Positions 1 through 13,376 of a stretch of DNA of 13,376 nt are shown piece after piece. The stretch is from the IMG/VR virus record IMGVR_UViG_2923344815_000005; one strand, written 5' to 3'. This DNA comes from a virus. Taxonomy: Duplodnaviria > Heunggongvirae > Uroviricota > Caudoviricetes. Every line of letters starts with the position of its first letter. Positions within the stretch are counted from its first letter, which is position 1. The translations under genes were made by a program, and so were the position numbers. The notes below the pieces were generated by a model. The model worked only from the letters and a program-made list of their open reading frames with translations. It searched no databases and was not told the origin of the DNA.

Positions 1-675
1 CTTGCACCTATCATAAAATTAAAACAAGTTGATAGCAGTCAAATAACAACCAATTAAATACACAATCATAATCAGGATGATGTGCATTTATATTTTTATA
101 CACAAAATTATAGTTTGCAAATTTTAATAAATTCCATTTAAGATTAAATTATTATATGTATATTGTTTTTTATTCTAACGTATTTCAAAGTTACATTTTT
201 CAACGCTTACTATACTTTTTATTAACATAAACTCACTACAACGCACCTGAAACCTCTTGCTATATATATGTCAACCGTTTGAATTTAAAATAAAAAGAGT
301 ATCATTTTTACTTGCATTTCTTATCAAGTCACATTCAACAACAGTAAAAAAACATTATTAGAACCATTCAATTAACAAAAAACCAACATCCAGCTTGCTT
401 AATTTTTCTTTATTAAACGACATTGAAAATCAATTGATAAAATACATCTAAACAACCTTTTGGGGCGCAAAAGCATAACATCAAACAAACAAATAACACA
501 CCGAAAAAACTCACAATTAATAACCTATGATATACATACTGTTTATTATGGTTGAATAAGCCACTCGATATCTGGTGCTACGGAAGTGTCCACACGGTTT
601 AGCAGCACCCGATACTTTTTCCAGGCTTCCAGCAACGAGTTTTCTTCCTCCGTTGCATATACAGCTCACCTTTTT

Positions 676-969
676 TCACCCACGATTAACCAACAGCCAG
701 ACCAGCAGACACGCCACCACCGGCACAGCAAAATCCATCAGGCTTGCCACATCCCATGCACGTGTATCAAAACCGCCCCACCACGGCATATTCATTCGCT
801 TGCCATGCCCGAACATTTCGATCCAGCGATATTCTGCCTGGGTGTGTTCACGCGCAATGAAGAACGTACAACCGGCTATCGCCCCGTAAGCCCAGTTCCC
901 GGTAAAAAGACCAATCAGTAGCTGCGCAGCCACAGCACAAAGCGCATGAAGGAAAGGTGTTATATCCAT
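676..969 (-). CDS. Small hypothetical membrane protein (97 aa) with two hydrophobic helices; last gene of the four-gene module
   Basis: ORF track. Strong RBS AAGGAGGAG a few nt before the ATG, 10 nt after the stop of the upstream gene. Two hydrophobic stretches (about residues 5-35 and 75-95) flank a Trp/Gly-rich loop. No family recognised. Confidence 0.5.
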   Translation of the reverse strand: MDITPFLHALCAVAAQLLIGLFTGNWAYGAIAGCTFFIAREHTQAEYRWIEMFGHGKRMNMPWWGGFDTRAWDVASLMDFAVPVVACLLVWLLVNRG

Positions 970-979
970 TACTCCTCCT

Positions 980-1684
980 TTATCCGATATCGCTTCGGGA
1001 AACGGATAACAACTTTAATTCTGACTCAAGTTCATCAACTCTTTCAGTCAGCTTCTGGATATGGTGAATCAGTGGAACAACCAGACGTTCGTACATTACA
1101 CCTTCGGCAACAAGGCCATTGCTGGAAATAGCTTCAGGAGCATCATCTTCGTTAGCTGGTCGCCAGTGTACAAACTGAGGGGCAATTTCTCCTACTTCCT
1201 CGGCAATCAATCCGTAGAATCCCCAGTCACGCCTGTCATTTTCGTATTGCGACCTGTACCACACAGGGCGCATCCTGAAAATGAGATCGGCGTGCTCTGA
1301 ATCTATCGTCTCTACTGAATGTTTATAGCGAATAGACGATGTTGACCGCAGTACAGACGAAATTGCAGGGTCAGGATTAAGATAAAGGTTTGCCGCCGCT
1401 GTAGTCGTGCCCAATCCCCACATATAAAACGCTTCACGGCCAGTCAACGGGTAAAAATCTCCACCATAACGACCGCTTTCCAGATCGTTCACTTCCAGTT
1501 TGTTTTTCAGCTTATTATCAACTTCAGTTTTTGTGTATCTGGTGCTGATATCCTGCTTTGCACTGGTCATATCAGTCTGAAGCGTTGATACTTTTCCGTT
1601 AATTGAGGAAATATCTTCCTTAGTTTTACTGACATCTCCCTTTAGCGTGGTGATATCTCCTGGAATTACTGTCGATGTAGCCAT
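980..1684 (-). CDS. Tail-fibre-like protein (234 aa): N-terminal repeat-rich probable coiled coil, C-terminal intramolecular-chaperone (peptidase S74-like) domain
   Basis: ORF track. RBS GAGGGAG 4 nt before the ATG. N-terminal region has repeating T/S-K-x-D-I-S blocks; C-terminal part (SSIRYKHSVETID ... GLIAEEVGEIAPQFV ... ELESELKLL) resembles the auto-cleaving chaperone domain of phage tail fibres and tailspikes as I recall it; unconfirmed. Confidence 0.55.
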   Translation of the reverse strand: MATSTVIPGDITTLKGDVSKTKEDISSINGKVSTLQTDMTSAKQDISTRYTKTEVDNKLKNKLEVNDLESGRYGGDFYPLTGREAFYMWGLGTTTAAANLYLNPDPAISSVLRSTSSIRYKHSVETIDSEHADLIFRMRPVWYRSQYENDRRDWGFYGLIAEEVGEIAPQFVHWRPANEDDAPEAISSNGLVAEGVMYERLVVPLIHHIQKLTERVDELESELKLLSVSRSDIG

Positions 1685-1693
1685 TTGTCTCCC

Positions 1694-1975
1694 TCACATC
1701 CAGCCACGAAGTTGATGCTCAACAACAACCGCGTATTTATCGAATATTGACGATTTTTTTACATCATTAATGATGCGCACGTTTACAAAATATCCGTCTT
1801 CCTTAACACATACCGGTTCGCCATCTTCAGTCAGTTCTCCGGTTTCTTTGTACACGTTACCTATCACGTCAATAAGAATATCATCCTGCATCGACTCGTC
1901 ATCATAATAGCCAATACTCTCCATAAAGGCCGAAAAGTCGGCCCTGTCTGCAAATTTGAGTGTTAAATCTTTCAT
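1694..1975 (-). CDS. Small acidic hypothetical protein (93 aa)
   Basis: ORF track. Start ATG overlaps the TGA stop of the upstream ORF (ATGA overlap), with GGGGAGAG upstream, suggesting translational coupling. No family recognised. Confidence 0.45.
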   Translation of the reverse strand: MKDLTLKFADRADFSAFMESIGYYDDESMQDDILIDVIGNVYKETGELTEDGEPVCVKEDGYFVNVRIINDVKKSSIFDKYAVVVEHQLRGWM

Positions 1976-2916
1976 TTAATACTCTCCCCCATTTGCGCAT
2001 CAGTTAATTCTTTATGCCAGATACGCAGATTACGGATATGACCAAAAAGATGATACTCCCCATTAGTGCCCTGCCCTCCAATTCGCAATACTGCCCGTGG
2101 AACAATTGAAGTCCATGTTGTTTTTGCCGCAACAGATAATTCACCATTACATACGGCCTGAACATCTCCATCAGCGCCACAACGGAAGCCTGAAATGATT
2201 TTCCTCTGGGTTGTTGCCACATATTTATTACACCCTCCCATAGAAATAAAAGGAGAACCGGCATCAGAGAAATTATTACCACGGAATCCATGCGTGAACA
2301 GACCATTTTCCTGATAATCTTTAACATTAAAGATTAATGGTGATTTGCTGGGAGGGATATCCCAGTTTTTATTAACTTCAACAAGAGCACTGAATGGTAA
2401 TCGGTGAATATTGTTTCTTACAGGTATTGTCACCATGTCGCTGGAGCGAGTGCCAGGAGCCCCTTCAGTAATGATAAATGACGTCCTGTACGACCCAATC
2501 TCCGCCTGAGGCATCGCAATATCTAACGTAGAGCCATTGGGGATAATACTGATTCCAGGCATCGCCAGGATTTCAAATCTTGAGCTGATTATCATTTCCG
2601 CATCTGCAAAAAGAGTGGCGGTAAACAACCACCATTCACCGACTCTTTCTGCCGTCACCGTCACATTATTTCCATGAACAACATTTCCCGTAACAGGATC
2701 CAGAACTGCATCTGAATGAAAAACAAACGCACCATTATCAGACATTTTTCCGAACCTTGCACGACACCGGGAATTATCACTTTTCGTCAGACACGATATC
2801 GTCGTATAAGAACCTGCCGGGCAGGTGTAAGCATCATTCGTGTTTACAGCAATTGCCTGATATCCTTGTGCTGTCGGATTTTCATTAATAACAGTTATAG
2901 TCGCTGCCCATCGCAT
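1972..2916 (-). CDS. C-terminal fragment of a tail-fibre / receptor-binding-like protein with a LamG-like (concanavalin-like jellyroll) domain; fused out of frame to the terminase A fragment, native start missing
   Basis: ORF track. C-terminal motif GEYHLFGHIRNLRIWHKELTDAQM resembles the end of LamG-type domains. The ATG at 2916 lies inside terminase-derived sequence, so only sequence below about 2896 is fibre-derived. An internal Met at about 2745 has only a weak RBS. Confidence 0.5.
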   Translation of the reverse strand: MRWAATITVINENPTAQGYQAIAVNTNDAYTCPAGSYTTISCLTKSDNSRCRARFGKMSDNGAFVFHSDAVLDPVTGNVVHGNNVTVTAERVGEWWLFTATLFADAEMIISSRFEILAMPGISIIPNGSTLDIAMPQAEIGSYRTSFIITEGAPGTRSSDMVTIPVRNNIHRLPFSALVEVNKNWDIPPSKSPLIFNVKDYQENGLFTHGFRGNNFSDAGSPFISMGGCNKYVATTQRKIISGFRCGADGDVQAVCNGELSVAAKTTWTSIVPRAVLRIGGQGTNGEYHLFGHIRNLRIWHKELTDAQMGESIK

Positions 2917-3100
2917 TCATGATGGCCCGCTGAAAGGGCAGTGTTTCCCAGCGCCCTTCCTGGTATGCGGATTCTTTCGGGAGATAGTAATTAGCATCCG
3001 CCCATTCAACGGCGGTCTGTGGCTCCGGCCTGAACAGTGAGCGAAGCCCGGCGCGGACAAAATGCCGCAGCCTGTTAACCTGACTGTTCGATATATTCAC
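2885..3100 (-). pseudogene. Terminase large subunit (gpA) N-terminal fragment, truncated after about 68 codons
   Basis: Translation MNISNSQVNRLRHFVRAGLRSLFRPEPQTAVEWADANYYLPKESAYQEGRWETLPFQRAIMNAMGSDY matches the recalled lambda gpA N-terminus, then diverges (NCY, stop). Start overlaps the nu1 stop as in lambda. Corresponds by position to the K-12 DLP12 terminase fragment. Confidence 0.85.
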
Positions 3101-3620
3101 TCAGCAACCCCGGTATCAGTTCATCCAGCGCGGCTGCTTTGTTCATGGCTTTGATGATATCCCGTTTCAGGAAATCAACATGTCGGTTTTCCAGTTCCGG
3201 AAAACGCCGCTGCACCGACAGGGGGATCCCGTCGAGAATACTGGCAATTTCACCTGCGATCCGCGACAGCACGAAAGTACAGAATGCGGTTTCCACCACT
3301 TCAGCGGAGTCTCTGGCATTTTTCAGCTCCTGTGCGTCGGCCTGCGCACGCGTAAGTCGATGGCGTTCGTACTCAATAGTCCCTGGCTGGAGATCTGTCT
3401 CGCTGGCCTGCCGCAGTTCTTCAACTTCCCGGCGCAGCTTTTCGTTCTCAATTTCAGCATCCCTTTCGGCATACCATCTTATAACGGCGGCAGAGTCATA
3501 AAGCACCTCATTACCCTTGCCACCGCCTCGCAGAACGGGCATTCCCTGTTCCTGCCAGTTCTGAATGGTACGGATACTCGCACCGAAAATGTCAGCCAGC
3601 TGCTTTTTGTTGACTTCCAT
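3075..3620 (-). CDS. nohD: Terminase small subunit Nu1 (181 aa), apparently intact
   Basis: ORF track; translation is near-identical over its full length to lambda Nu1 as recalled (MEVNKKQLADIFGASIRTIQNWQEQGMPVLRGG...). Lies immediately downstream of cos. Confidence 0.9.
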   Translation of the reverse strand: MEVNKKQLADIFGASIRTIQNWQEQGMPVLRGGGKGNEVLYDSAAVIRWYAERDAEIENEKLRREVEELRQASETDLQPGTIEYERHRLTRAQADAQELKNARDSAEVVETAFCTFVLSRIAGEIASILDGIPLSVQRRFPELENRHVDFLKRDIIKAMNKAAALDELIPGLLSEYIEQSG

Positions 3621-3860
3621 TGTTCATTCCACGGCCAAAAACAGAGAAAGGAAACGACAGAGGCCCAAAAGCTCGTTTTCAGCACCTGTCGTTTCCTTTC
3701 TTTTCAGGGGGTATTTTAAATAAAAACATTAAGTTACGACGAAGAAGAACGGAAATGCCTTAAACCGGAAAATTTTCATAAATAGCGAAAACCCGCGAGG
3801 TCGCCGCCCCGTAACCTGTCGGATCGCCGGAAAGGACCCGCAAAATGATAATAATTATCA
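3621..3860 (-). other. Lambda-like cos site: cosB with three R-type repeats, cosN cohesive-end sequence, flanking cosQ-side sequence
   Basis: Reverse complement of 3798-3809 is GGGCGGCGACCT, the lambda 12-nt cohesive end, followed by CGCGGGTTTTCGC. R-like motifs at about 3650-3660 (GGAAACGACAG), 3685-3696 (inverted copy) and 3747-3755. Sequence above 3810 matches the recalled lambda right end (CGTAACCTGTCGGATC). Confidence 0.8.
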
Positions 3861-4008
3861 TCTACATGTCACAACGTGCATCTACGCCATCAAACCACGT
3901 CAAATAATCAATTATGACGCAGGTATCGTATTAATTGATCTGCATCAACTTAACGTAAAAACAACTTCAGACAATACAAATCAGCGACACTGAATACGGG
4001 GCAACCTC

Positions 4009-4203
4009 ATGTCAACGAAGAACAGAACCCGCAGAACAACAACCCGCAACATCCGCTTTCCTAACCAAATGATTGAACAAATTAACATCGCTCTTGAGCA
4101 AAAAGGGTCTGGGAATTTCTCAGCCTGGGTCATTGAAGCCTGCCGTCGGAGACTAACGTCAGAAAAGAGAGCATATACATCAATCCAGAGTGATGATGAA
4201 TAA
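4009..4203 (+). CDS. Small ribbon-helix-helix (Arc/MetJ-like) DNA-binding protein, 64 aa
   Basis: ORF track. Basic N-terminus followed by NIRFPNQMIEQINIALEQKGSGNFSAWVIEACRRRL, which resembles the strand-helix-helix pattern of Arc/Mnt-type repressors. Sits between cos and bor. Confidence 0.5.
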   Translation: MSTKNRTRRTTTRNIRFPNQMIEQINIALEQKGSGNFSAWVIEACRRRLTSEKRAYTSIQSDDE

Positions 4204-4562
4204 ACATCCCGGTTTCTTCCACCATCGCACCGGAAAAGCGACTATGAGGGTAACCCTGCGTCTGTCAGCACAGTAAAACCCGGTGTGCATCGTTTTTGAT
4301 TATTCCCGCACACTCACGCAGAAGGAATTCCCCGTCGGGCTACGGTCATGGTTAATGCGGGAATACGGCGACGATACAGCGCAGCTAAAAGGGTAATGGA
4401 CAGAAAGAGCGGTTTATTTCATTCCACAGGATTCTGAGTGCCCCCCTCCTCCAATAGGCTGAGCATCCACCTATATAGTTTTAATTTTCATCAATCCATT
4501 TAACTATCGTTTAATTGTTGTCACATAGGATTCTGCCGTTTTTAACAATGCAGGATAATAAG

Positions 4563-4856
4563 ATGAAAAAAATGTTGTTTTCTGCCGCTCTGGCAATGCT
4601 TATTACAGGATGTGCTCAACAGACGTTTACTGTTGGAAACAAACCGACAGCAGTAACACCAAAGGAAACCATCACCCATCACTTCTTCGTTTCGGGAATT
4701 GGACAGGAGAAAACTGTTGATGCAGCCAAAATTTGTGGCGGCGCAGAAAATGTTGTTAAAACAGAAACCCAGCAAACATTCGTAAATGGATTGCTCGGTT
4801 TTATTACTTTAGGCATTTATACTCCGCTGGAAGCGCGTGTGTATTGCTCACAATAA
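4563..4856 (+). CDS. borD: Bor/Iss-family outer-membrane lipoprotein (97 aa)
   Basis: MKKMLFSAALAMLITGCAQQTFTV... has a signal peptide with lipobox LITGC and matches lambda Bor as recalled. Start taken at the internal Met of track ORF 4515..4856. Convergent with Rz, as in lambda. Confidence 0.9.
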   Translation: MKKMLFSAALAMLITGCAQQTFTVGNKPTAVTPKETITHHFFVSGIGQEKTVDAAKICGGAENVVKTETQQTFVNGLLGFITLGIYTPLEARVYCSQ

Positions 4857-4862
4857 TTGCAT

Positions 4863-4888
4863 GAGTTGCCCATCGATATGGGCAGCTC
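4863..4888. terminator. Palindromic hairpin between convergent bor and Rz (possible bidirectional terminator)
   Basis: GAGTTGCCCAT-CGAT-ATGGGCAGCTC gives an 11-bp stem (one G-U pair) with a 4-nt loop. It overlaps the Rz stop codon. No clean U-tract on either strand. Confidence 0.35.
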
Positions 4889-5349
4889 TATCTGCACTGC
4901 TCATTAATATACTTCTGGGTTCCTTCCAGTTGTTTTTGCATAGTGATCAGCCTCTCTCTGAGGGTGAAATAATCCCGTTCAGCGGTGTCTGCCAGTCGGG
5001 GGGAGGCTGCATTATCCACGCCGGAGGCGGTGGTGGCTTCACGCACTGACTGACAGACTGCTTTGATGTGCAACCGACGACGACCAGCGGCAACATCATC
5101 ACGCAGAGCATCATTTTCAGCTTTCGCATTAGCTAACTCCTTCGTGTATTTTTCATCCAGTGCAGCAACATCACGCTGGCGCATCTGCATGTCAGTAATT
5201 GCCGCGTTCGCCAGCTTCAGTTCTCTGGCATTTTTGTCGCGCTGGGCTTTGTAGGTAATGGCGTTATCACGGTAATGATTAACAGCCCATGACAGGCAGA
5301 CGATGATGCAGATAACCAGAGCGGAGATAATCGCGGTTACTCTGTTCAT
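4888..5349 (-). CDS. rzpD: Rz inner-membrane spanin (i-spanin)
   Basis: Matches lambda Rz as recalled ([33 protein letters not shown]...). Start placed at the Met whose ATG overlaps the endolysin stop (ATGA); the track ORF extends 4 codons further upstream. Confidence 0.9.
4947..5129 (-). CDS. rzoD: Rz1 outer-membrane lipoprotein spanin (o-spanin), embedded in the +1 frame of Rz
   Basis: 60-aa [63 protein letters not shown]: lipobox VVGC and proline-rich stretch, matching lambda Rz1 as recalled. Lies entirely inside Rz in another frame. Confidence 0.85.
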
Positions 5350-5843
5350 TGCTGACCCCACAAACAGATTTCACGCTCAATCTCACGACGAGTCATGAGA
5401 CCTTTCCATTGCTTACCGCCAGCATATGTCCAGCGACGTAGCTGATCACATGCGCCTTTGATATCGCCCTGGTTTATTTTGCGAAGAAGCGTCGATGTTC
5501 TGAAATTGCCAGCGCCCACGTTGTAAACGAACGAGTAAAGAGCGCCGCGCGTTGTTTCCGGTATATCAACTTTTATGTACGGGTTAATTTGTCTGGCGAC
5601 CGTGGCAAGGTCTTTATTCAGGAGGGCTTTGCATTCTGCTTTGGTATACGTTTTACCGAGCATGATGTCTTTTCCTGTATGCCCGTGACATACAGTCCAT
5701 ACACCAACAATATCTTTGTATGGTATGTAGCTGACACCTTCCAGACCATCGTTACCACTTGGGCCAGTGATTAACACTGATGCTATAGCAATTGCTCCGC
5801 CACCAATAGCAGCAGCAACGGCTTTTCGTAATGATGGAGGCAT
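5346..5843 (-). CDS. rrrD: SAR (signal-arrest-release) endolysin, phage-21 R-type lysozyme
   Basis: 165 aa; Gly/Ala-rich weakly hydrophobic N-terminus ([18 protein letters not shown]) followed by a lysozyme-like domain; matches phage 21 R as recalled. Start overlaps the holin stop by 1 nt. Confidence 0.9.
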
Positions 5844-6058
5844 TATTCACCTCTCGCAGCCTTGCGCTTATCTTCTTTAATCTTGAAATAAAGGTTTGTC
5901 AGGTACGTCAGCAGGCCAAATACCAGGCTACCCAGCACACCTATTGCTGCCCACTGTGAGGGCGTGACTTTATCGAGCAGCTGTAAAAACCAGTAACCGG
6001 CACTACCTGCTGAGGTGCCATAGGCGACACCCGTTGTTAACTTATCCATGGATTTCAT
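5843..6058 (-). CDS. essD: Pinholin S21 with dual-start motif (antiholin from Met at 6058, holin from Met at 6049)
   Basis: [31 protein letters not shown]...[15 protein letters not shown] matches phage 21 S as recalled; M-K-S-M dual start; two transmembrane segments. RBS GAGGTGGGG upstream. The track ORF extends further upstream to 6103. Confidence 0.9.
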
Positions 6059-6103
6059 AACCCCACCTCGCAGACAAAGCGGGTGTAAATTGAGGGAATA
6101 CAA

Positions 6104-6646
6104 CGTATCGCAAAAAAGCAGAAACGTAACAGACTCGGAGTCAGTGAATAACTCAGGTATTGAGTTATCAGCTAATATCGAGACTCAAAAAATGGAAAAA
6201 CCAGCTCGACGGCGGGTTTAAGCTGTGTGACGAAGTAACCACTCTTAACAGCATAACCAATTTTTTACGTACGTAAACCACTGAATGATATTTATGAGAA
6301 TGCTACCGAGTGTTCAAAACACCACCACAAATATATAAGAAAACCTCAACAAATAACCAATAAATAATTTCCGGCGTTATTTTTAGTTGATTTAAATTAA
6401 ACCACCGAATTATAGAACCCCCATAAATAACAGCCATTAATATAAATTAGCTAATAGGTTTATTTTTGTTCAAATAAGAGCTATAAATAGGTTTCGATAG
6501 AAAAAGTTCAGATAAAAATAGAGATCTACTTCACAAATTAAATGAGAAACTAAAACTTACATCTTGAAATAATCACATTGATTAGATGAATATTTATCGC
6601 GCAGTGACATCATTTTTTAATAATAGTTCAAAAAAAAGGGCTCACG
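6104..6646. promoter_or_regulatory. AT-rich divergent intergenic region between the lysis cassette and the porin gene; presumed to hold the porin promoter
   Basis: About 540 bp with no ORF of 60 aa or more, strongly AT-rich, lying between divergently transcribed genes. I could not place -35/-10 elements confidently. Confidence 0.3.
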
Positions 6647-7729
6647 ATGAAAAAATTAACAGTGGCAATTTCTGCTGTAGCTGCATCAGTACTGATGACG
6701 ATGTCTGCTCAGGCAGCTGAAATTTATAATAAAGACAGTAACAAGCTGGATCTGTACGGGAAAGTTAATGCCAAGCACTACTTTTCCTCTAACGATGCAG
6801 ATGATGGTGATACTACTTATGCCCGTCTTGGCTTCAAAGGTGAAACCCAAATCAACGATCAACTGACTGGTTTCGGTCAGTGGGAATATGAATTCAAAGG
6901 CAACCGCGCTGAATCTCAAGGTTCCTCCAAAGACAAAACCCGTCTTGCATTTGCAGGCCTGAAATTCGGTGACTACGGCTCAATCGATTACGGCCGTAAC
7001 TACGGTGTAGCATACGACATCGGTGCGTGGACTGACGTTCTGCCAGAATTCGGTGGCGATACCTGGACCCAAACAGATGTGTTCATGACTGGTCGCACCA
7101 CTGGTGTTGCAACCTATCGTAACAACGACTTCTTTGGTCTGGTCGATGGCCTGAACTTTGCTGCTCAGTATCAGGGTAAAAATGACCGCACTGACGTAAC
7201 TGAAGCCAATGGTGATGGTTTCGGTTTCTCCACTACTTATGAGTATGAAGGATTCGGCGTGGGTGCAACCTATGCTAAATCAGATCGCACTGACGGTCAG
7301 GTCGCCTATGGTAAGAGCAAATTCAATGCCTCCGGCAAAAATGCGGAAGTATGGGCTGCAGGCCTGAAATATGATGCGAACAATATCTATCTGGCTACCA
7401 CATATTCTGAAACTCAGAATATGACCGTTTTTGGTAATAACCATATTGCAAACAAAGCACAAAACTTTGAAGCAGTAGCACAATATCAGTTTGACTTCGG
7501 TCTGCGACCATCTGTTGCTTACCTTCAGTCAAAAGGTAAAGACCTTGGTGTTCATGGTGACCGAGACTTAGTCAAGTATGTCGATGTCGGTGCTACTTAC
7601 TACTTTAATAAAAACATGTCCACTTTTGTTGATTACAAAATCAACTTAATTGACGATAGTAAGTTTACCAAAACAGCTGGTATTGATACCGACGACATCG
7701 TCGCTGTAGGTCTGGTGTATCAGTTCTAA
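6647..7729 (+). CDS. nmpC: Outer-membrane general porin of the OmpC/OmpF family (nmpC-like), apparently intact
   Basis: 360 aa; signal peptide ending [10 protein letters not shown]; porin hallmarks ([18 protein letters not shown]-terminal VYQF). Position between Q and the lysis genes on the opposite strand matches DLP12 nmpC. Confidence 0.85.
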
Positions 7730-7745
7730 TCTGATTACGAAAAAG

Positions 7746-7827
7746 ATATGTTGCGGGAGGCTTTGCCTCCCCAACATATAAGTGGCTCCCTCAAGCCACT
7801 TCCTTTAGAAGCACAACCTTGCTTCTA
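7746..7827 (+). other. Three consecutive stem-loops in the porin 3' untranslated region
   Basis: Hairpin 1 at about 7746-7779 (15-bp stem with one bulge, 3-nt loop); hairpin 2 at about 7780-7801 (AAGTGGCT / AGCCACTT); hairpin 3 at about 7806-7827 (TAGAAGC / GCTTCTA). Confidence 0.5.
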
Positions 7828-7867
7828 ACTATATAAACCTTCTGTTATATATTACCCTTTATTTTTG

Positions 7868-7891
7868 GGGGCGTCTCAACGCCCCATTTTT
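7868..7891 (+). terminator. Rho-independent terminator for the porin transcript
   Basis: GGGGCGT-CTCA-ACGCCCC (7-bp GC-rich stem) followed by ATTTTT on the plus strand. Lies between convergent nmpC and the Q-like gene. Confidence 0.6.
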
Positions 7892-7918
7892 AATAATTTT
7901 TAGTAAACAATTGGCATA

Positions 7919-8302
7919 TTAATTAGAGTTATTAACAACGATATCCATCTCTAACCGGATATCTAATGCCATTAACATCCCTTCAATTATGCCCTCAGCC
8001 TTCTGTAACCTTTTCCCGATATAACCATCAGAGCAGCAATGCTTACCTGCCAGTGACATGAATGTCATACCGACTACATAATAATCTACTAATAAATCGT
8101 GCAAATCGCTGTTGTTCTTTTTCAGACGGGCCATGCACCCGCAAATGATCATCGCGTCATCGTCACAACATTGCGGGCGAGATTTTACTTTTGAAGTAAT
8201 TAATCCCTTAAAACCGGCGGCAATGGACGACCAGGTCACATCTTCATGATTATTAGCCGCCCACGCTCCCCAACGCTCAAGAACCATCTGAATATCACGC
8301 AT
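7919..8302 (-). CDS. quuD: Late-gene antiterminator Q-like protein
   Basis: Cys-rich protein ([16 protein letters not shown] ... [11 protein letters not shown]) located between rusA/ylcG and the late/lysis region, matching the DLP12 gene order. Start chosen at Met 6 of track ORF 7919..8317; either start is possible. Confidence 0.7.
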
Positions 8303-8387
8303 CAACTTACTCCACAAAAATCAGACCAGAACGCCAATTACAAGCAAAAATCAATAAAACAGTATTAGTTGATTGTTATCTCTGACT

Positions 8388-8528
8388 TCATACTCCTGCT
8401 CCTGTCAGGGTTTTGGCGTAATTCCTCAGTATTCGGTAATCGGTCAAAACAGAACTGGGGAAACGATATAAGCGCAGGCGCATCCAGCGGTGGCGAAGAA
8501 GTTCTGCCATATTAAACTCAAACATCAT
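8388..8528 (-). CDS. ylcG: Small protein (46 aa) coupled to rusA, at the ylcG position
   Basis: Not in the ORF track (under 60 aa). Reverse-strand reading gives [46 protein letters not shown]; its ATG overlaps the rusA stop (ATGA). Confidence 0.5.
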
Positions 8529-8887
8529 TCATTCCCCATTTCGGTGATGGTCAGTTCCAGCCTCCCACCTTTGGTAACAGGCATCTTCACAACGCGGTAA
8601 TCAACGACCTGAGCATCATCCAGCCAGAAACCTGCTTTAGTGAGTGCGTCAAAAGCGGCTTTTTGCAGATTATCCAGGTCACGGCGACGGCGATCCGGCA
8701 TGTGGCACTCAATGCGGATTTTCACAGGGATAGCCAGGCCGATATCCAGCATTGCGTTTTTAATGATTCTGGCGACGTTATCGCGGTATGCCTGCCCCTC
8801 TGCGCTGACGTGCGTGCGCCCGCGATTATGGCGGTAATAGCGATTATTGCTCGGAGGCCAGGGTAATGTGATGCTGTAGGTATTCAC
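8525..8887 (-). CDS. rusA: RusA Holliday-junction resolvase (120 aa)
   Basis: Translation matches RusA as recalled ([37 protein letters not shown]...). The start codon read from the sequence is GTG, with no well-spaced RBS. Confidence 0.9.
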
Positions 8888-8956
8888 GCCTTAATAATCC
8901 CCTCTTTCAGCCACATAACCTGTGTTTTCGCCATACCTTCCAACTGAGGTGTAAAA

Positions 8957-9235
8957 ATGTTCAGAATCATTTTGCCTAACACCTGGTACGTCGACCACCA
9001 CGGCACTCCCTGCAAAATCCTGCGTTCTACCCACAACAAAGTTCACTACATCCGAAAAGGCAGAACATGTATCGCCAGCATGTTCCGCTTTAATCATGAC
9101 TTTGAACCTGTGAATAAAGCTGATGCAGATCGGATAGCAGAAGAGATCGAAACGGCAGAACACATTAAGAAGTTACGTGACATGCGTTCAAAAAGCAGAG
9201 GTAACCATGGAATCATACAGCCTCACACTCGATGA
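8957..9235 (+). CDS. Hypothetical protein (92 aa) immediately upstream of xis/int
   Basis: ORF track. Strong RBS TGAGGTG about 7 nt before the ATG; same direction as xis and int and overlapping the xis start. Overlaps antisense ORF 8891..9163, so only one of the two can be real. Confidence 0.4.
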   Translation: MFRIILPNTWYVDHHGTPCKILRSTHNKVHYIRKGRTCIASMFRFNHDFEPVNKADADRIAEEIETAEHIKKLRDMRSKSRGNHGIIQPHTR

Positions 9236-9578
9236 GGCCTGTCAGTTTCTTAAGATATCCAGACCAACCGCCACCAACTGGATACGAACAGGCCGCCTAC
9301 AGGCAACACGTAAAGATCCAACCAAGCCAAAATCTCCTTACCTCACAACACGGCAAGCCTGCATTGCGGCGCTTCAGTCTCCGCTGCATACTGTCCAGGT
9401 GAGCGCGGGTGATGGCATAACAGAGGAAAGAAAATGTCACTCTTCCGCAGAAATGAAATATGGTATGCCTCGTATTCGCTCCCGGGCGGGAAACGAATTA
9501 AGGAATCTCTTGGCACAAAGGACAAGCGGCAAGCTCAGGAGTTGCACGACAAGCGAAAAGCAGAACTCTGGCGAGTAG
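9207..9578 (+). CDS. xisD: Excisionase-like helix-turn-helix protein (xis candidate), unusually long and overlapping the int start
   Basis: From the Met at 9207 (RBS GAGGT upstream): [35 protein letters not shown], an HTH typical of excisionase/AlpA-type proteins. The frame stays open about 145 nt into int; the true C-terminus is uncertain and it may be a degraded gene. Confidence 0.5.
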
Positions 9579-10597
9579 AAAAGCTAGGGGATTTACCTGA
9601 TGTCACTTTTGAAGAGGCCTGCCTAAGATGGCTTGAGGAAAAAGCTGATAAAAAATCTCTCGATTCAGATAAAAGCCGGATTGAGTTCTGGCTTGAACAT
9701 TTTGAGGGTATAAGGCTTAAAGATATCTCGGAGGCAAAGATTTACTCTGCTGTAAGCAGAATGCATAACAGAAAGACGAAAGAAATATGGAAACAGAAAG
9801 TTCAGGCCGCCATCAGGAAAGGTAAAGAACCGCCTGTTTATGAACCAAAGCCAGTATCAACTCAGACAAAGGCAAAGCATCTTGCCATGATAAAGGCCAT
9901 TCTCCGTGCTGCAGAACGCGACTGGAAGTGGCTGGAAAAAGCGCCTGTCATCAAGATACCAGCGGTCAGAAACAAGCGAGTCAGATGGCTGGAAAAGGAG
10001 GAAGCAAAACGCCTTATTGATGAGTGCCCCGAACCACTGAAATCTGTCGTCAAGTTTGCGCTGGCAACTGGTCTGAGAAAGTCGAACATCATAAATCTGG
10101 AATGGCAACAAATCGACATGCAGCGACGAGTTGCCTGGGTGAATCCAGAAGAGAGCAAATCAAACCGCGCCATTGGTGTGGCGCTGAACGATACCGCCTG
10201 TAAAGTGTTGCGTGATCAAATAGGCAAGCATCACAAATGGGTGTTTGTACATACCAAGGCGGCTAAGCGAGCAGATGGAACATCAACGCCTGCGGTCAGG
10301 AAGATGCGCATCGACAGCAAGACATCATGGCTATCAGCTTGTCGTCGTGCAGGAATTGAAGATTTCCGTTTCCATGACCTCAGACACACCTGGGCAAGCT
10401 GGCTGATTCAGTCAGGCGTCCCATTATCAGTGCTTCAGGAAATGGGCGGATGGGAGTCCATAGAAATGGTTCGTAGGTATGCTCACCTTGCGCCTAATCA
10501 TTTGACAGAGCATGCGAGGAAAATAGACGACATTTTTGGTGATAATGTCCCAAATATGTCCCACTCTGGAATTATGGAGGATATAAAGAAGGCGTAA
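9434..10597 (+). CDS. intD: Tyrosine integrase (387 aa) adjacent to tRNA-Arg
   Basis: N-terminus [34 protein letters not shown] typical of P4/P21-type integrases; C-terminal catalytic motifs (HDLRHTWAS ... RRYAHL with the active-site Tyr). Stop is about 15 bp from the tRNA 3' end. Confidence 0.9.
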
Positions 10598-10612
10598 CTG
10601 ATTGAATTGTAA

Positions 10613-10689
10613 TGGCGCGCCCTGCAGGATTCGAACCTGCGGCCCACGACTTAGAAGGTCGTTGCTCTATCCAACTGAGCTAAGGGCGC
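10613..10689 (-). tRNA. argU: tRNA-Arg (anticodon UCU), argU-like; integration target of the prophage
   Basis: Reverse complement reads GCGCCCTTAGCTCAGTTGGATAGAGCAACGACCTTCTAAGTCGTGGGCCGCAGGTTCGAATCCTGCAGGGCGCGCCA: 77 nt, cloverleaf-compatible, anticodon loop CUUCUAA, T-loop GGTTCGAATCC, terminal CCA. Confidence 0.9.
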
Positions 10690-10931
10690 GTTGATACCGC
10701 AATGCGGTGTAATCGCGTGAATTATACGGTCAACCCTTGCTGAGTCAATGGCTTTTGATCTGGTTGCTGAACAAGTGAACGACCGCGTCTGATTTTCTGA
10801 TTTATTTCGCTATAGTGGCAAACAAACGCACACCGCTGCGCGTCTGAATCAAGAAAACCCGTATTTTCATGTATCAAAGTACAATTTATCGCCCTAACGG
10901 AAAATTGTCCGCTCCTATGAGACTGGTAACT

Positions 10932-11329
10932 ATGAAACCAACGTCGGTGATCATTATGGATACTCATCCTATCATCAGAATGTCTATTGAAGTTCTGTTG
11001 CAAAAAAACAGTGAATTGCAGATTGTCCTGAAAACGGATGATTACCGCATAACCATCGATTATCTCCGAACCCGTCCTGTTGATTTAATCATTATGGATA
11101 TAGACTTACCCGGAACAGACGGTTTTACCTTCCTGAAAAGGATCAAACAAATCCAGAGCACAGTGAAAGTGTTATTTTTATCATCGAAATCAGAATGCTT
11201 TTATGCTGGCAGAGCGATACAAGCTGGTGCTAACGGTTTTGTCAGTAAATGCAATGATCAGAATGATATTTTTCATGCCGTTCAGATGATCCTCTCCGGA
11301 TACACGTTTTTTCCTAGCGAAACGCTTAA
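10932..11329 (+). pseudogene. fimZ: fimZ-like response regulator, receiver domain only, truncated by IS5
   Basis: MKPTSVIIMDTHPIIRMSIEVLLQKN...DLIIMDIDLPGTDGF matches the FimZ receiver domain as recalled. The ORF runs into IS5 at 11330; the track ORF tail (KEGANKRGN...) is IS5-encoded. No room for a LuxR-type HTH domain remains downstream. Confidence 0.8.
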
Positions 11330-12524
<1,195 letters not shown>

Positions 12525-12678
12525 TTAGATGAATACTTCCGCGCATAATATATTCAACACAAATATAGACCTGAAGCGGTAAATTACCAGGCTGAAAATT
12601 CTTTTTATATTGTCAGGTATTTCGGTGATGCTGCCAACTTACTGATTTAGTGTATGATGGTGTTTTTGAGGTGCTCCA

Positions 12679-12954
12679 GTGGCTTCTGTTTCTATCAGCT
12701 GTCCCTCCTGTTCAGCTACTGACGGGGTGGTGCGTAACGGCAAAAGCACTGCCGGACATCAGCGCTATCTCTGCTCTCACTGCCGTAAAACATGGCAACT
12801 GCAGTTCACTTACACCGCTTCTCAACCCGGTACGCACCAGAAAATCATTGATATGGCCATGAATGGCGTTGGATGCCGGGCAACCGCCCGCATTATGGGC
12901 GTTGGCCTCAACACGATTTTCCGCCATTTAAAAAACTCAGGCCGCAGTCGGTAA
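12679..12954 (+). CDS. insA: IS1 InsA (transposition inhibitor / N-terminal part of the transposase)
   Basis: GTG start; zinc-finger-like CPSC...CSHC and an HTH; matches IS1 InsA as recalled. Confidence 0.9.
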
Positions 12955-13376
12955 CCTCGCGCATACAGCCGGGCAGTGACGTCATCGTCTGCGCGGAAAT
13001 GGACGAACAGTGGGGATACGTCGGGGCTAAATCGCGCCAGCGCTGGCTGTTTTACGCGTATGACAGGCTCCGGAAGACGGTTGTTGCGCACGTATTCGGT
13101 GAACGCACTATGGCGACGCTGGGGCGTCTTATGAGCCTGCTGTCACCCTTTGACGTGGTGATATGGATGACGGATGGCTGGCCGCTGTATGAATCCCGCC
13201 TGAAGGGAAAGCTGCACGCAATCAGCAAGCGATATACGCAGCGAATTGAGCGGCATAACCTGAATCTGAGGCAGCACCTGGCACGGCTGGGACGGAAGTC
13301 GCTGTCGTTCTCAAAATCGGTGGAGCTGCATGACAAAGTCATCGGGCATTATCTGAACATAAAACACTATCAATAA
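12873..13376 (+). CDS. insB: IS1 insB reading frame (expressed as the InsAB' fusion by -1 frameshifting)
   Basis: 167-aa ORF ending at the last base of the window; matches IS1 InsB as recalled and overlaps insA in the -1 frame. Confidence 0.85.
12930..12936 (+). other. IS1 programmed -1 ribosomal frameshift site (A6C motif)
   Basis: AAAAAAC at about 12930-12936 (context TTTAAAAAACTC) in the insA/insB overlap; this is the established IS1 slippery motif. Confidence 0.7.

Follow-up and report, generated by a model that had tools for sequence, protein, structure and literature searches.

A complete lambda-type cos site beside the terminase small-subunit gene nohD in a cryptic DLP12 prophage of Escherichia coli: a probable packaging-origin relic open to helper phages

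The stretch of DNA analysed here (13,376 nucleotides; the window) carries the cryptic prophage DLP12, integrated at argU beside appY and ompT in an ETEC-like E. coli. It matches E. coli chromosomes, the best matches being ETEC-like strains (F5656C1 and FMU073332, among others); window positions 1-12623 are 99.99% identical to F5656C1. The prophage was identified by the RefSeq annotation of the F5656C1 region and by synteny with MG1655: argU with intD, the late region quuD-porin-essD-rrrD-rzpD-bor, and the adjacent genes appY and ompT are all present, the last two lying directly past window position 1 (the low-coordinate end) in the matching genome F5656C1. Read in reverse, the gene order is argU tRNA-Arg, intD, rusA, ylcG, quuD and an intact nmpC-type porin gene, followed by essD, rrrD, rzpD, a bor/iss homologue, ylcI, a non-coding gap, nohD, a truncated TerL pseudogene, and tail-fibre remnants. 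The principal features are the following (window coordinates).

657-2896, minus strand: side-tail-fibre remnants fused to A' (ORFs of 314, 93, 234 and 97 aa)
2885-3100, minus strand: A' remnant, GTG start at 3100; 68 codons of the lambda gpA N-terminus (2897-3100), then three foreign codons and a stop
3075-3620, minus strand: nohD, Nu1/TerS homologue, 181 aa, ATG at 3620
3840..4216, minus strand: lambda right-end flank, including ylcI and the FNR site
3930-3953, minus strand: FNR site TTAAGTTGATGCAGATCAATTAAT, exact copy; the same sequence is present in lambda itself
4009-4203, plus strand: ylcI, 64 aa, DUF3950 (Pfam E = 2e-20)
4563-4856, plus strand: bor homologue, 97 aa, Lambda_Bor; annotated iss (increased serum survival)
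4888-6058: lysis genes
6647-7729, plus strand: DLP12 porin gene of the nmpC type, 360 aa, full Porin_1 domain
10613-10689: tRNA-Arg(tct), argU

The prophage differs from its K-12 counterpart in several respects outside the packaging region. Between bor and ylcI, the window lacks ybcV and ybcW, which K-12 and lambda have at this place, and phage PhiR34_1 is arranged likewise. The porin gene (RefSeq label 'ompC') is intact, whereas the K-12 gene is split by IS5, and the porin region shares only ~91% identity with the K-12 region. The ~7.2-kb early region of K-12 (exoD' through ybcO, including IS3, emrE and ybcK-ybcN) is missing at window 8943-9338, where rusA is joined to intD by ~0.4 kb of fragmentary ORFs; no replication gene and no rpp gene were found in this intD-rusA stretch. 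Just outside argU, an IS5 copy lies inside fimZ (window 11326-12533), which is truncated, and an IS1 copy occupies the window end (12621-13376), where F5656C1 has folD.

The window was aligned base by base to lambda (NC_001416) with the lambda ends joined. Window 4216 to 2897 (minus strand) corresponds to lambda 48096-48502 joined to 1-913, and the interval 3621-3860 corresponds to lambda 48452-48502 plus 1-190, i.e. to the entire cos. The alignment confirmed the claim of a sequence-only reading of this DNA that cosN, three R repeats and the right-end flank are present next to a full-length nu1: a complete lambda-type cos lies on the minus strand, with cosQ, cosN, I2, R3, the I1 interval, R2 and R1 in the order, orientation and spacing of lambda, and it abuts the full-length nu1 homologue nohD. 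Its subsites are the following.

3833-3839, minus strand: cosQ, GGGTCCT (lambda 48473-48479), termination-nicking site; identical to lambda, 21 bp from the cosN 16-mer
3796-3811, minus strand: cosN 16-mer CGGGGCGGCGACCTCG (lambda 48501-14); exact match to lambda
3798-3809, minus strand: 12-nt cohesive end GGGCGGCGACCT (lambda 1-12), within the cosN core with 2 bp on either side
3761-3792, minus strand: I2 static-bend segment (lambda 18-49); identical to lambda, including the critical bp 30-35
3745-3760, minus strand: R3, the critical TerS-binding site (lambda 50-65); carries G54A at window 3756
3702-3744, minus strand: R3-R2 interval with the IHF site I1 (lambda 66-108); substitutions at lambda 73 and 102
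3686-3701, plus strand: R2, TerS-binding site (lambda 109-124); exact 16-mer CTGTCGTTTCCTTTCT, inverted relative to R3 and R1
3645-3660, minus strand: R1, accessory TerS-binding site (lambda 151-166); exact 16-mer

The lambda coordinates of cosQ are those reportedly given by Wieczorek and Feiss (2001). For I1, the coordinates 3702-3744 are those of the whole R3-R2 interval that contains it. Lambda 48487-48502 and 1-53 are identical in the window, with neither substitution nor indel. The interval 3621-3860 contains 11 differences from lambda in 240 bp (at lambda 48459, 48467, 48471, 48486, 54, 73, 102, 134, a deletion of 138, 145, and 176), which spare cosQ, cosN, I2, the R3 contact bp 55-63, R2 and R1, so that G54A, at the edge of R3, is the sole change within any named subsite. 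The stretch from cosN to R2 is free of indels, and the critical cosN-R3 spacing is thus retained. A chance origin of these elements is excluded by the pattern counts: the cosQ-N21-cosN pattern occurs once against 0.00 expected from shuffles, and the 16-bp R consensus has two exact matches, at R1 and R2, against 0.12 matches expected at up to three mismatches.

Known requirements of the lambda site provide a measure for these differences. The functional cosN is a 16-bp segment, made up of the 12 bp and the 2 bp next to them at either end (PMC9026076), and initiation requires I2 (bp 18-50), in which bp 30-35 are critical (PMC4856287). R3 comprises bp 50-65, of which TerS contacts bp 55-63, and its known defective mutations lie at bp 56, 58 and 59 (PMC9026076), whereas the role of R1 is accessory (PMC4669245). 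The alignment, which had been proposed as a check for mutations at critical cosN or R-site positions, found no known critical position altered. All three R repeats are present in the right order; R3 is nevertheless one substitution off the consensus (CATTTCC vs CGTTTCC, due to G54A, outside the contact bp 55-63), and is the least consensus-like repeat here.

The predicted NohD protein matches the Pfam family Phage_Nu1 (PF07471) over model positions 1-164 of 164 (E = 2.4e-101, 336.7 bits) and departs from lambda Nu1 at three residues only (K48R, A75T and L132I); at the nucleotide level, nohD and lambda nu1 differ at eight positions, three of which change the protein. The recognition helix of Nu1 comprises residues 17-24 and the wing residues 31-39 (PMC9026076). 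The substitutions in NohD lie outside both, and the winged helix-turn-helix (wHTH) and the C-terminal TerL-binding end are intact; as the wHTH is identical, the same packaging specificity as that of lambda is expected. NohD is furthermore 100% identical to Nu1 of Escherichia phage PhiR42_1. A promoter-consensus scan for nohD over window 2800-4600 returned three promoter-like matches against 2.1 expected.

In place of a full-length TerL (gpA, 641 aa) beside TerS, the window has 68 codons of A followed, after the three foreign codons, by the stop. Homology to lambda A ends at lambda 913, at the deletion junction 2897/2898, and A' is annotated as an incomplete pseudogene in F5656C1. Beyond the junction, window 657-2896 has 93-96% identity to the 3' part of the stf region of the lambdoid phages PhiR49_1, IdasGreatGrand and 2G7b, and the 234-aa fibre ORF matches Peptidase_S74. 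The direct joining of A' to stf sequence indicates that one internal deletion took the rest of A together with all head and tail-shaft genes; in the annotation of F5656C1, the prophage contains no head, tail-shaft or replication genes. The earlier conclusion that the large subunit is destroyed and that the prophage is unable to package itself is borne out by a TerL that ends at 68 aa and by the loss of the structural genes. The 314-aa ORF labelled 'head spike fiber domain' (1972-2916, minus strand) begins with an ATG (2916) that lies within the remnant of gpA and is read in a different frame; being located in gpA-derived sequence, this annotated start arose as a by-product of the deletion.

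The cos allele of the window recurs in a phage with complete packaging genes. The 240 bp of 3621-3860 are 100% identical to PhiR42_1 (PV340562), a deposited complete genome of 48.7 kb with full Nu1, A, W and portal (B) genes and a named propagation host. All variants of the window except A54 also occur in PhiR34_1, PhiR26_1 (host listed as K-12 MG1655) and PhiR49_1, and the substitutions at lambda 73 and 102 represent a common natural allele, found in four deposited phages and in most sampled prophages. PhiR34_1 is moreover collinear with window 2898-6500 (S-R-Rz-bor-ylcI-cos-Nu1-A) at 98.4% identity. Ten cos copies were compared (lambda, the window, K-12 DLP12, K-12 Qin, PhiR42_1, and five prophages with a full-length A): cosQ, a 22-bp cosN, I2 bp 30-35, R3 bp 55-63 and R2 are invariant in all ten, intact and defective alike, and the variation falls between the subsites. 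A54 itself was found in the window, PhiR42_1 and K-12 Qin, and thus among complete phages in PhiR42_1 only. By its sequence, the site appears to be a competent cis substrate for a terminase of lambda specificity. A 'decayed cos' was considered as a candidate and rejected, the interval being identical to that of a complete phage.

An enzyme of the required kind is widespread. A full-length lambda-type nu1-A is present in 3263 of 5426 complete E. coli genomes (60%), and A, W and portal genes accompany it at all five nu1-A loci sampled; a terminase of lambda-type packaging specificity is the norm in E. coli and not the exception. In lambda packaging, TerS binds cosB and TerL nicks cosN, after which terminase keeps the cosB-containing end as Complex I; this docks on the portal and the cosB end is translocated, while the cosQ-containing end is left to nucleases, and termination needs a downstream cosQ-cosN (PMC4669245, PMC4856287). 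When the second cut fails, DNA protrudes from the head and tail attachment is blocked; cosmid-style packaging depends on another cos of like orientation no more than a headful away (PMC6687093). Because terminase holds the cosB end, packaging from the window would run to lower coordinates, through nohD, A' and the fibre remnants toward appY and ompT. The genes on this side beyond the window, according to the F5656C1 annotation, are appY, ompT, envY, nfrA, rhs/vgrG, cus, pheP and ent/fep, and in that genome a lambda length measured from cosN ends close to entF. The genes bor (4563-4856), the lysis genes (4888-6058) and the porin gene (6647-7729) lie on the opposite, cosQ side.

A second cos was sought in F5656C1, a near-identical genome, in 50 kb downstream, 47 kb upstream and the 26-kb locus itself, accepting up to three mismatches in the 16-mer, or up to one in the 12-mer in the right context. 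No second cosN-like site was found within ~55 kb downstream or ~61 kb upstream, and F5656C1 thus offers no pair of cos sites in the same orientation ~38-51 kb apart, as cos-to-cos packaging would call for. Lacking a second cos within a headful, the locus could start packaging and could not finish it.

Recombination at such cos sites has precedents. Fisher and Feiss reportedly described, in 1980, how a defective prophage rescued a lambda cos deletion, and Kotani et al. are said to have applied lambda terminase to the E. coli chromosome in 1992. K-12 DLP12 shares 3.35 kb with lambda, comprising R, Rz, cos, nu1 and A; lambda-DLP12 recombinants arose at high frequency, 10 of 19 junctions lay beside cos, and recombinants with the DLP12 nu1, R or Rz were viable (De Paepe 2014, PMC3945230). 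The Feiss laboratory avoided K-12 hosts, whose defective prophages carry cosN, and Feiss et al. (2015) used E. coli C, which has no cosN of lambda type and so avoids recombination with defective-prophage DNA (PMC4669245).

The window itself carries a trace of such exchange. Over lambda 54-719 (cosB and nohD, 666 bp), it shows no difference from K-12 Qin and is also identical to PhiR42_1, as against 12 differences from K-12 DLP12; over lambda 48427-48502 (the right end, 76 bp), it differs from K-12 DLP12 at one position and from Qin at nine. These opposite affinities place a switch of haplotype between lambda 48486 and 54, i.e. at cosN. Among the ten copies, every combination of right-end and cosB haplotype is represented, a mixing that would fit cos as a recombination hot spot whose sequence is maintained by phage exchange.

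Three other readings of the locus were weighed. The site might be a dead look-alike, one of its substitutions (most plausibly G54A in R3, or else T48486C in the stretch separating cosQ from cosN) having abolished binding or nicking by terminase. R3 is the most critical repeat, G54 is conserved across R1-R3 of lambda, and defective prophages make up two of the three known A54 carriers; A54 lies, however, outside the contact bp 55-63 and the defective positions 56, 58 and 59, the entire interval is that of PhiR42_1, a phage with complete terminase and head genes, and the other variants are shared by four deposited phages as well as by prophages with a full-length A. Loss of function at this site is therefore improbable. 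More improbable still is the reading in which a helper terminase packages the bor, lysis and porin genes in cosmid fashion to give transducing particles. This had been proposed in the sequence-only reading, and two of its elements stand, namely a cos intact in sequence and the commonness of lambda-type terminases in E. coli, whereas its cargo direction and its mechanism fall. The proposed cargo lies on the cosQ side, which is exposed to nucleases and not translocated, and the second cos in the same orientation on which cosmid-style packaging depends is missing over the ~61 kb upstream and ~55 kb downstream in F5656C1; bor, the lysis genes and the porin gene could enter phage particles only by recombination into a phage genome.

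It has further been suggested that Nu1 binding at cosB was kept for another role. Under such a domestication, NohD-cosB and/or the 68-aa gpA peptide would serve the host or act against phages, as a decoy cos, by titration or poisoning of terminase, or as a regulator. Consistent with this, nohD is intact, as are K-12 nohD and nohA, and FNR binds just upstream: the FNR site upstream of nohA and nohB is bound in K-12 (ChIP-chip and gel-shift), with little transcriptional effect (PMC1802558). Independent deletions have also repeatedly spared cos-nu1. In different lineages, the end points cluster just 3' of nu1 (lambda ~697, 700, 719, 882, 913, 966 and 1018, in a biased and small sample), further end points among the matches listed lie at lambda 347, 1240 and 1760, and the partner sequence is the Lom/side-tail-fibre/tfa region. 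The end points just after nu1 may reflect a hot spot, selection or sampling bias, and could hint at selection to keep cos-nu1. Against domestication, NohD is identical to a phage TerS, without the divergence that would suggest a new function; the cloned nohA/nohB upstream region, which contains the whole cos, bound FNR and had low promoter activity with marginal FNR dependence (PMC1802558); and a nohD with an IS insertion is tolerated in the viable K-12 strain ER2796 (PMC4444293). K-12 has two modules of this kind and supports normal growth of lambda, which recombines with them productively; phage exchange would maintain the sequence without host selection. No positive evidence for the suggested other role was found, and we regard domestication as unlikely. 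We consider it just as doubtful that cos and TerS, possibly with the TerS-binding gpA peptide, are under selection as a docking site for trade in late genes, or as a mild decoy or poison of terminase that lowers the burst.

The reading that we prefer, with a probability of roughly 80%, is that cos and nohD are a packaging-origin relic in DLP12, left by the deletion from A codon 69 to the stf genes, which a helper can use and which is not a device of the host. The helper would be a phage of lambda specificity that infects the cell, or an induced resident one. Its TerL would nick cosN at window 3798-3809; we infer this nicking from the identity to the cos of PhiR42_1, taken as a working site, and from the experiments with the K-12 allele. 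The cosB/nohD end would then be held in the terminase complex and brought to a prohead, and packaging would proceed toward appY, ompT, envY, nfrA, cus and ent. As there is no downstream cos in a headful, termination would not follow, and the products would be at most tail-less, one-cos dead ends of the 'docL type'. On the cosQ side, the exposed end (with ylcI, bor, the lysis genes and the porin gene) would be a recombinogenic double-strand end, which could be rescued into a phage genome by homologous recombination to yield hybrid phages. A helper infection would thus likely result in a double-strand break, dead-end packaging from one cos, and recombination with the phage; for the strain of the window, we infer both the cutting and the fate of the ends from these comparisons. 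The persistence of the module would be due to recent descent and to repeated exchange with circulating lambdoid phages, and not to selection for a cellular function.

The arrangement as such is already known, and is catalogued by the names nohD and aaaD and by the DLP12 annotation of MG1655. K-12 DLP12, with its cos-nohD (b0560)-aaaD pseudogene, is the same prophage at the same site (argU/intD ... appY/ompT); it shares the order essD-rrrD-rzpD-bor-ylcI-cos-nohD-A', is 98.2% identical over window 2898-4220, and is the allele that experimentally recombines with lambda at cos and supplies a functional nu1. The two differ in the deletion junction, which joins A codon 68 to stf in the window and A codon 103 to tfaD in K-12 (the window-type junction is found in 30 of 5426 genomes, and the K-12 type in 365), and in the cosB-nohD haplotype, which in the window is of the Qin/PhiR42_1 type, in addition to the absence of ybcV and ybcW, the early region of ~0.4 kb and the intact porin gene noted above. 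K-12 Qin (cos-nohA) is likewise a cryptic prophage with cos and a nu1 homologue near tail-fibre genes, and is identical to the window over lambda 54-719; unlike the window, it occupies another locus, nohA itself is truncated at lambda ~719 and fused toward stfQ, and the right-end flank is of the lambda type, with the nine differences in 76 bp given above. Compared with lambda itself, the window has identical cosQ, cosN, I2, R2 and R1, and departs from it by the 11 differences, including G54A, and by the lack of TerL and of a downstream cos, which leaves only the initiation half of packaging possible.

Two further systems resemble the locus in part. Lambda 'doc' particles with one cohesive end, and the in situ packaging of an unexcised prophage, were reportedly described by Sternberg and Weisberg in 1975 and by Sternberg in 1986; in docL, packaging proceeds from a chromosomal cos into host DNA without a terminating cos. 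A similar fate is expected for the window, except that the doc prophage makes the terminase itself and undergoes replication in situ, whereas here TerL and capsids must come from a helper and the locus is not amplified. The cos-carrying PICIs (e.g. EcCICFT073, Rpp) are likewise chromosomal, with lambda-like cosQ and cosN, and use helper terminase and capsids; they excise and replicate, have no R sites of the phage type, and redirect TerS by means of the Rpp that they encode. The element in the window, by contrast, combines a cosB of the phage type with a phage TerS and lacks both rpp and a replication module. A new satellite or PICI was rejected as a candidate on these same grounds.

The locus provides a natural example of a cryptic prophage that, by its sequence, appears to have retained a competent packaging origin long after the loss of the enzyme. 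A consequence would be a chromosomal break site, programmed whenever a phage of lambda specificity grows in the cell, and with it a hot spot for hybrid phages that acquire DLP12 late genes (bor/iss, the lysis cassette, and possibly the porin gene). It would not provide a high-frequency transduction route for the neighbouring virulence-related genes. Caution is also indicated for the genetics of cos mutants in strains carrying such a cos.

The ylcI gene lies ~170 bp from cosQ. Lambda contains an intact, near-identical ylcI-like ORF of 64 aa (complement 48109-48303), which is unannotated in NC_001416.
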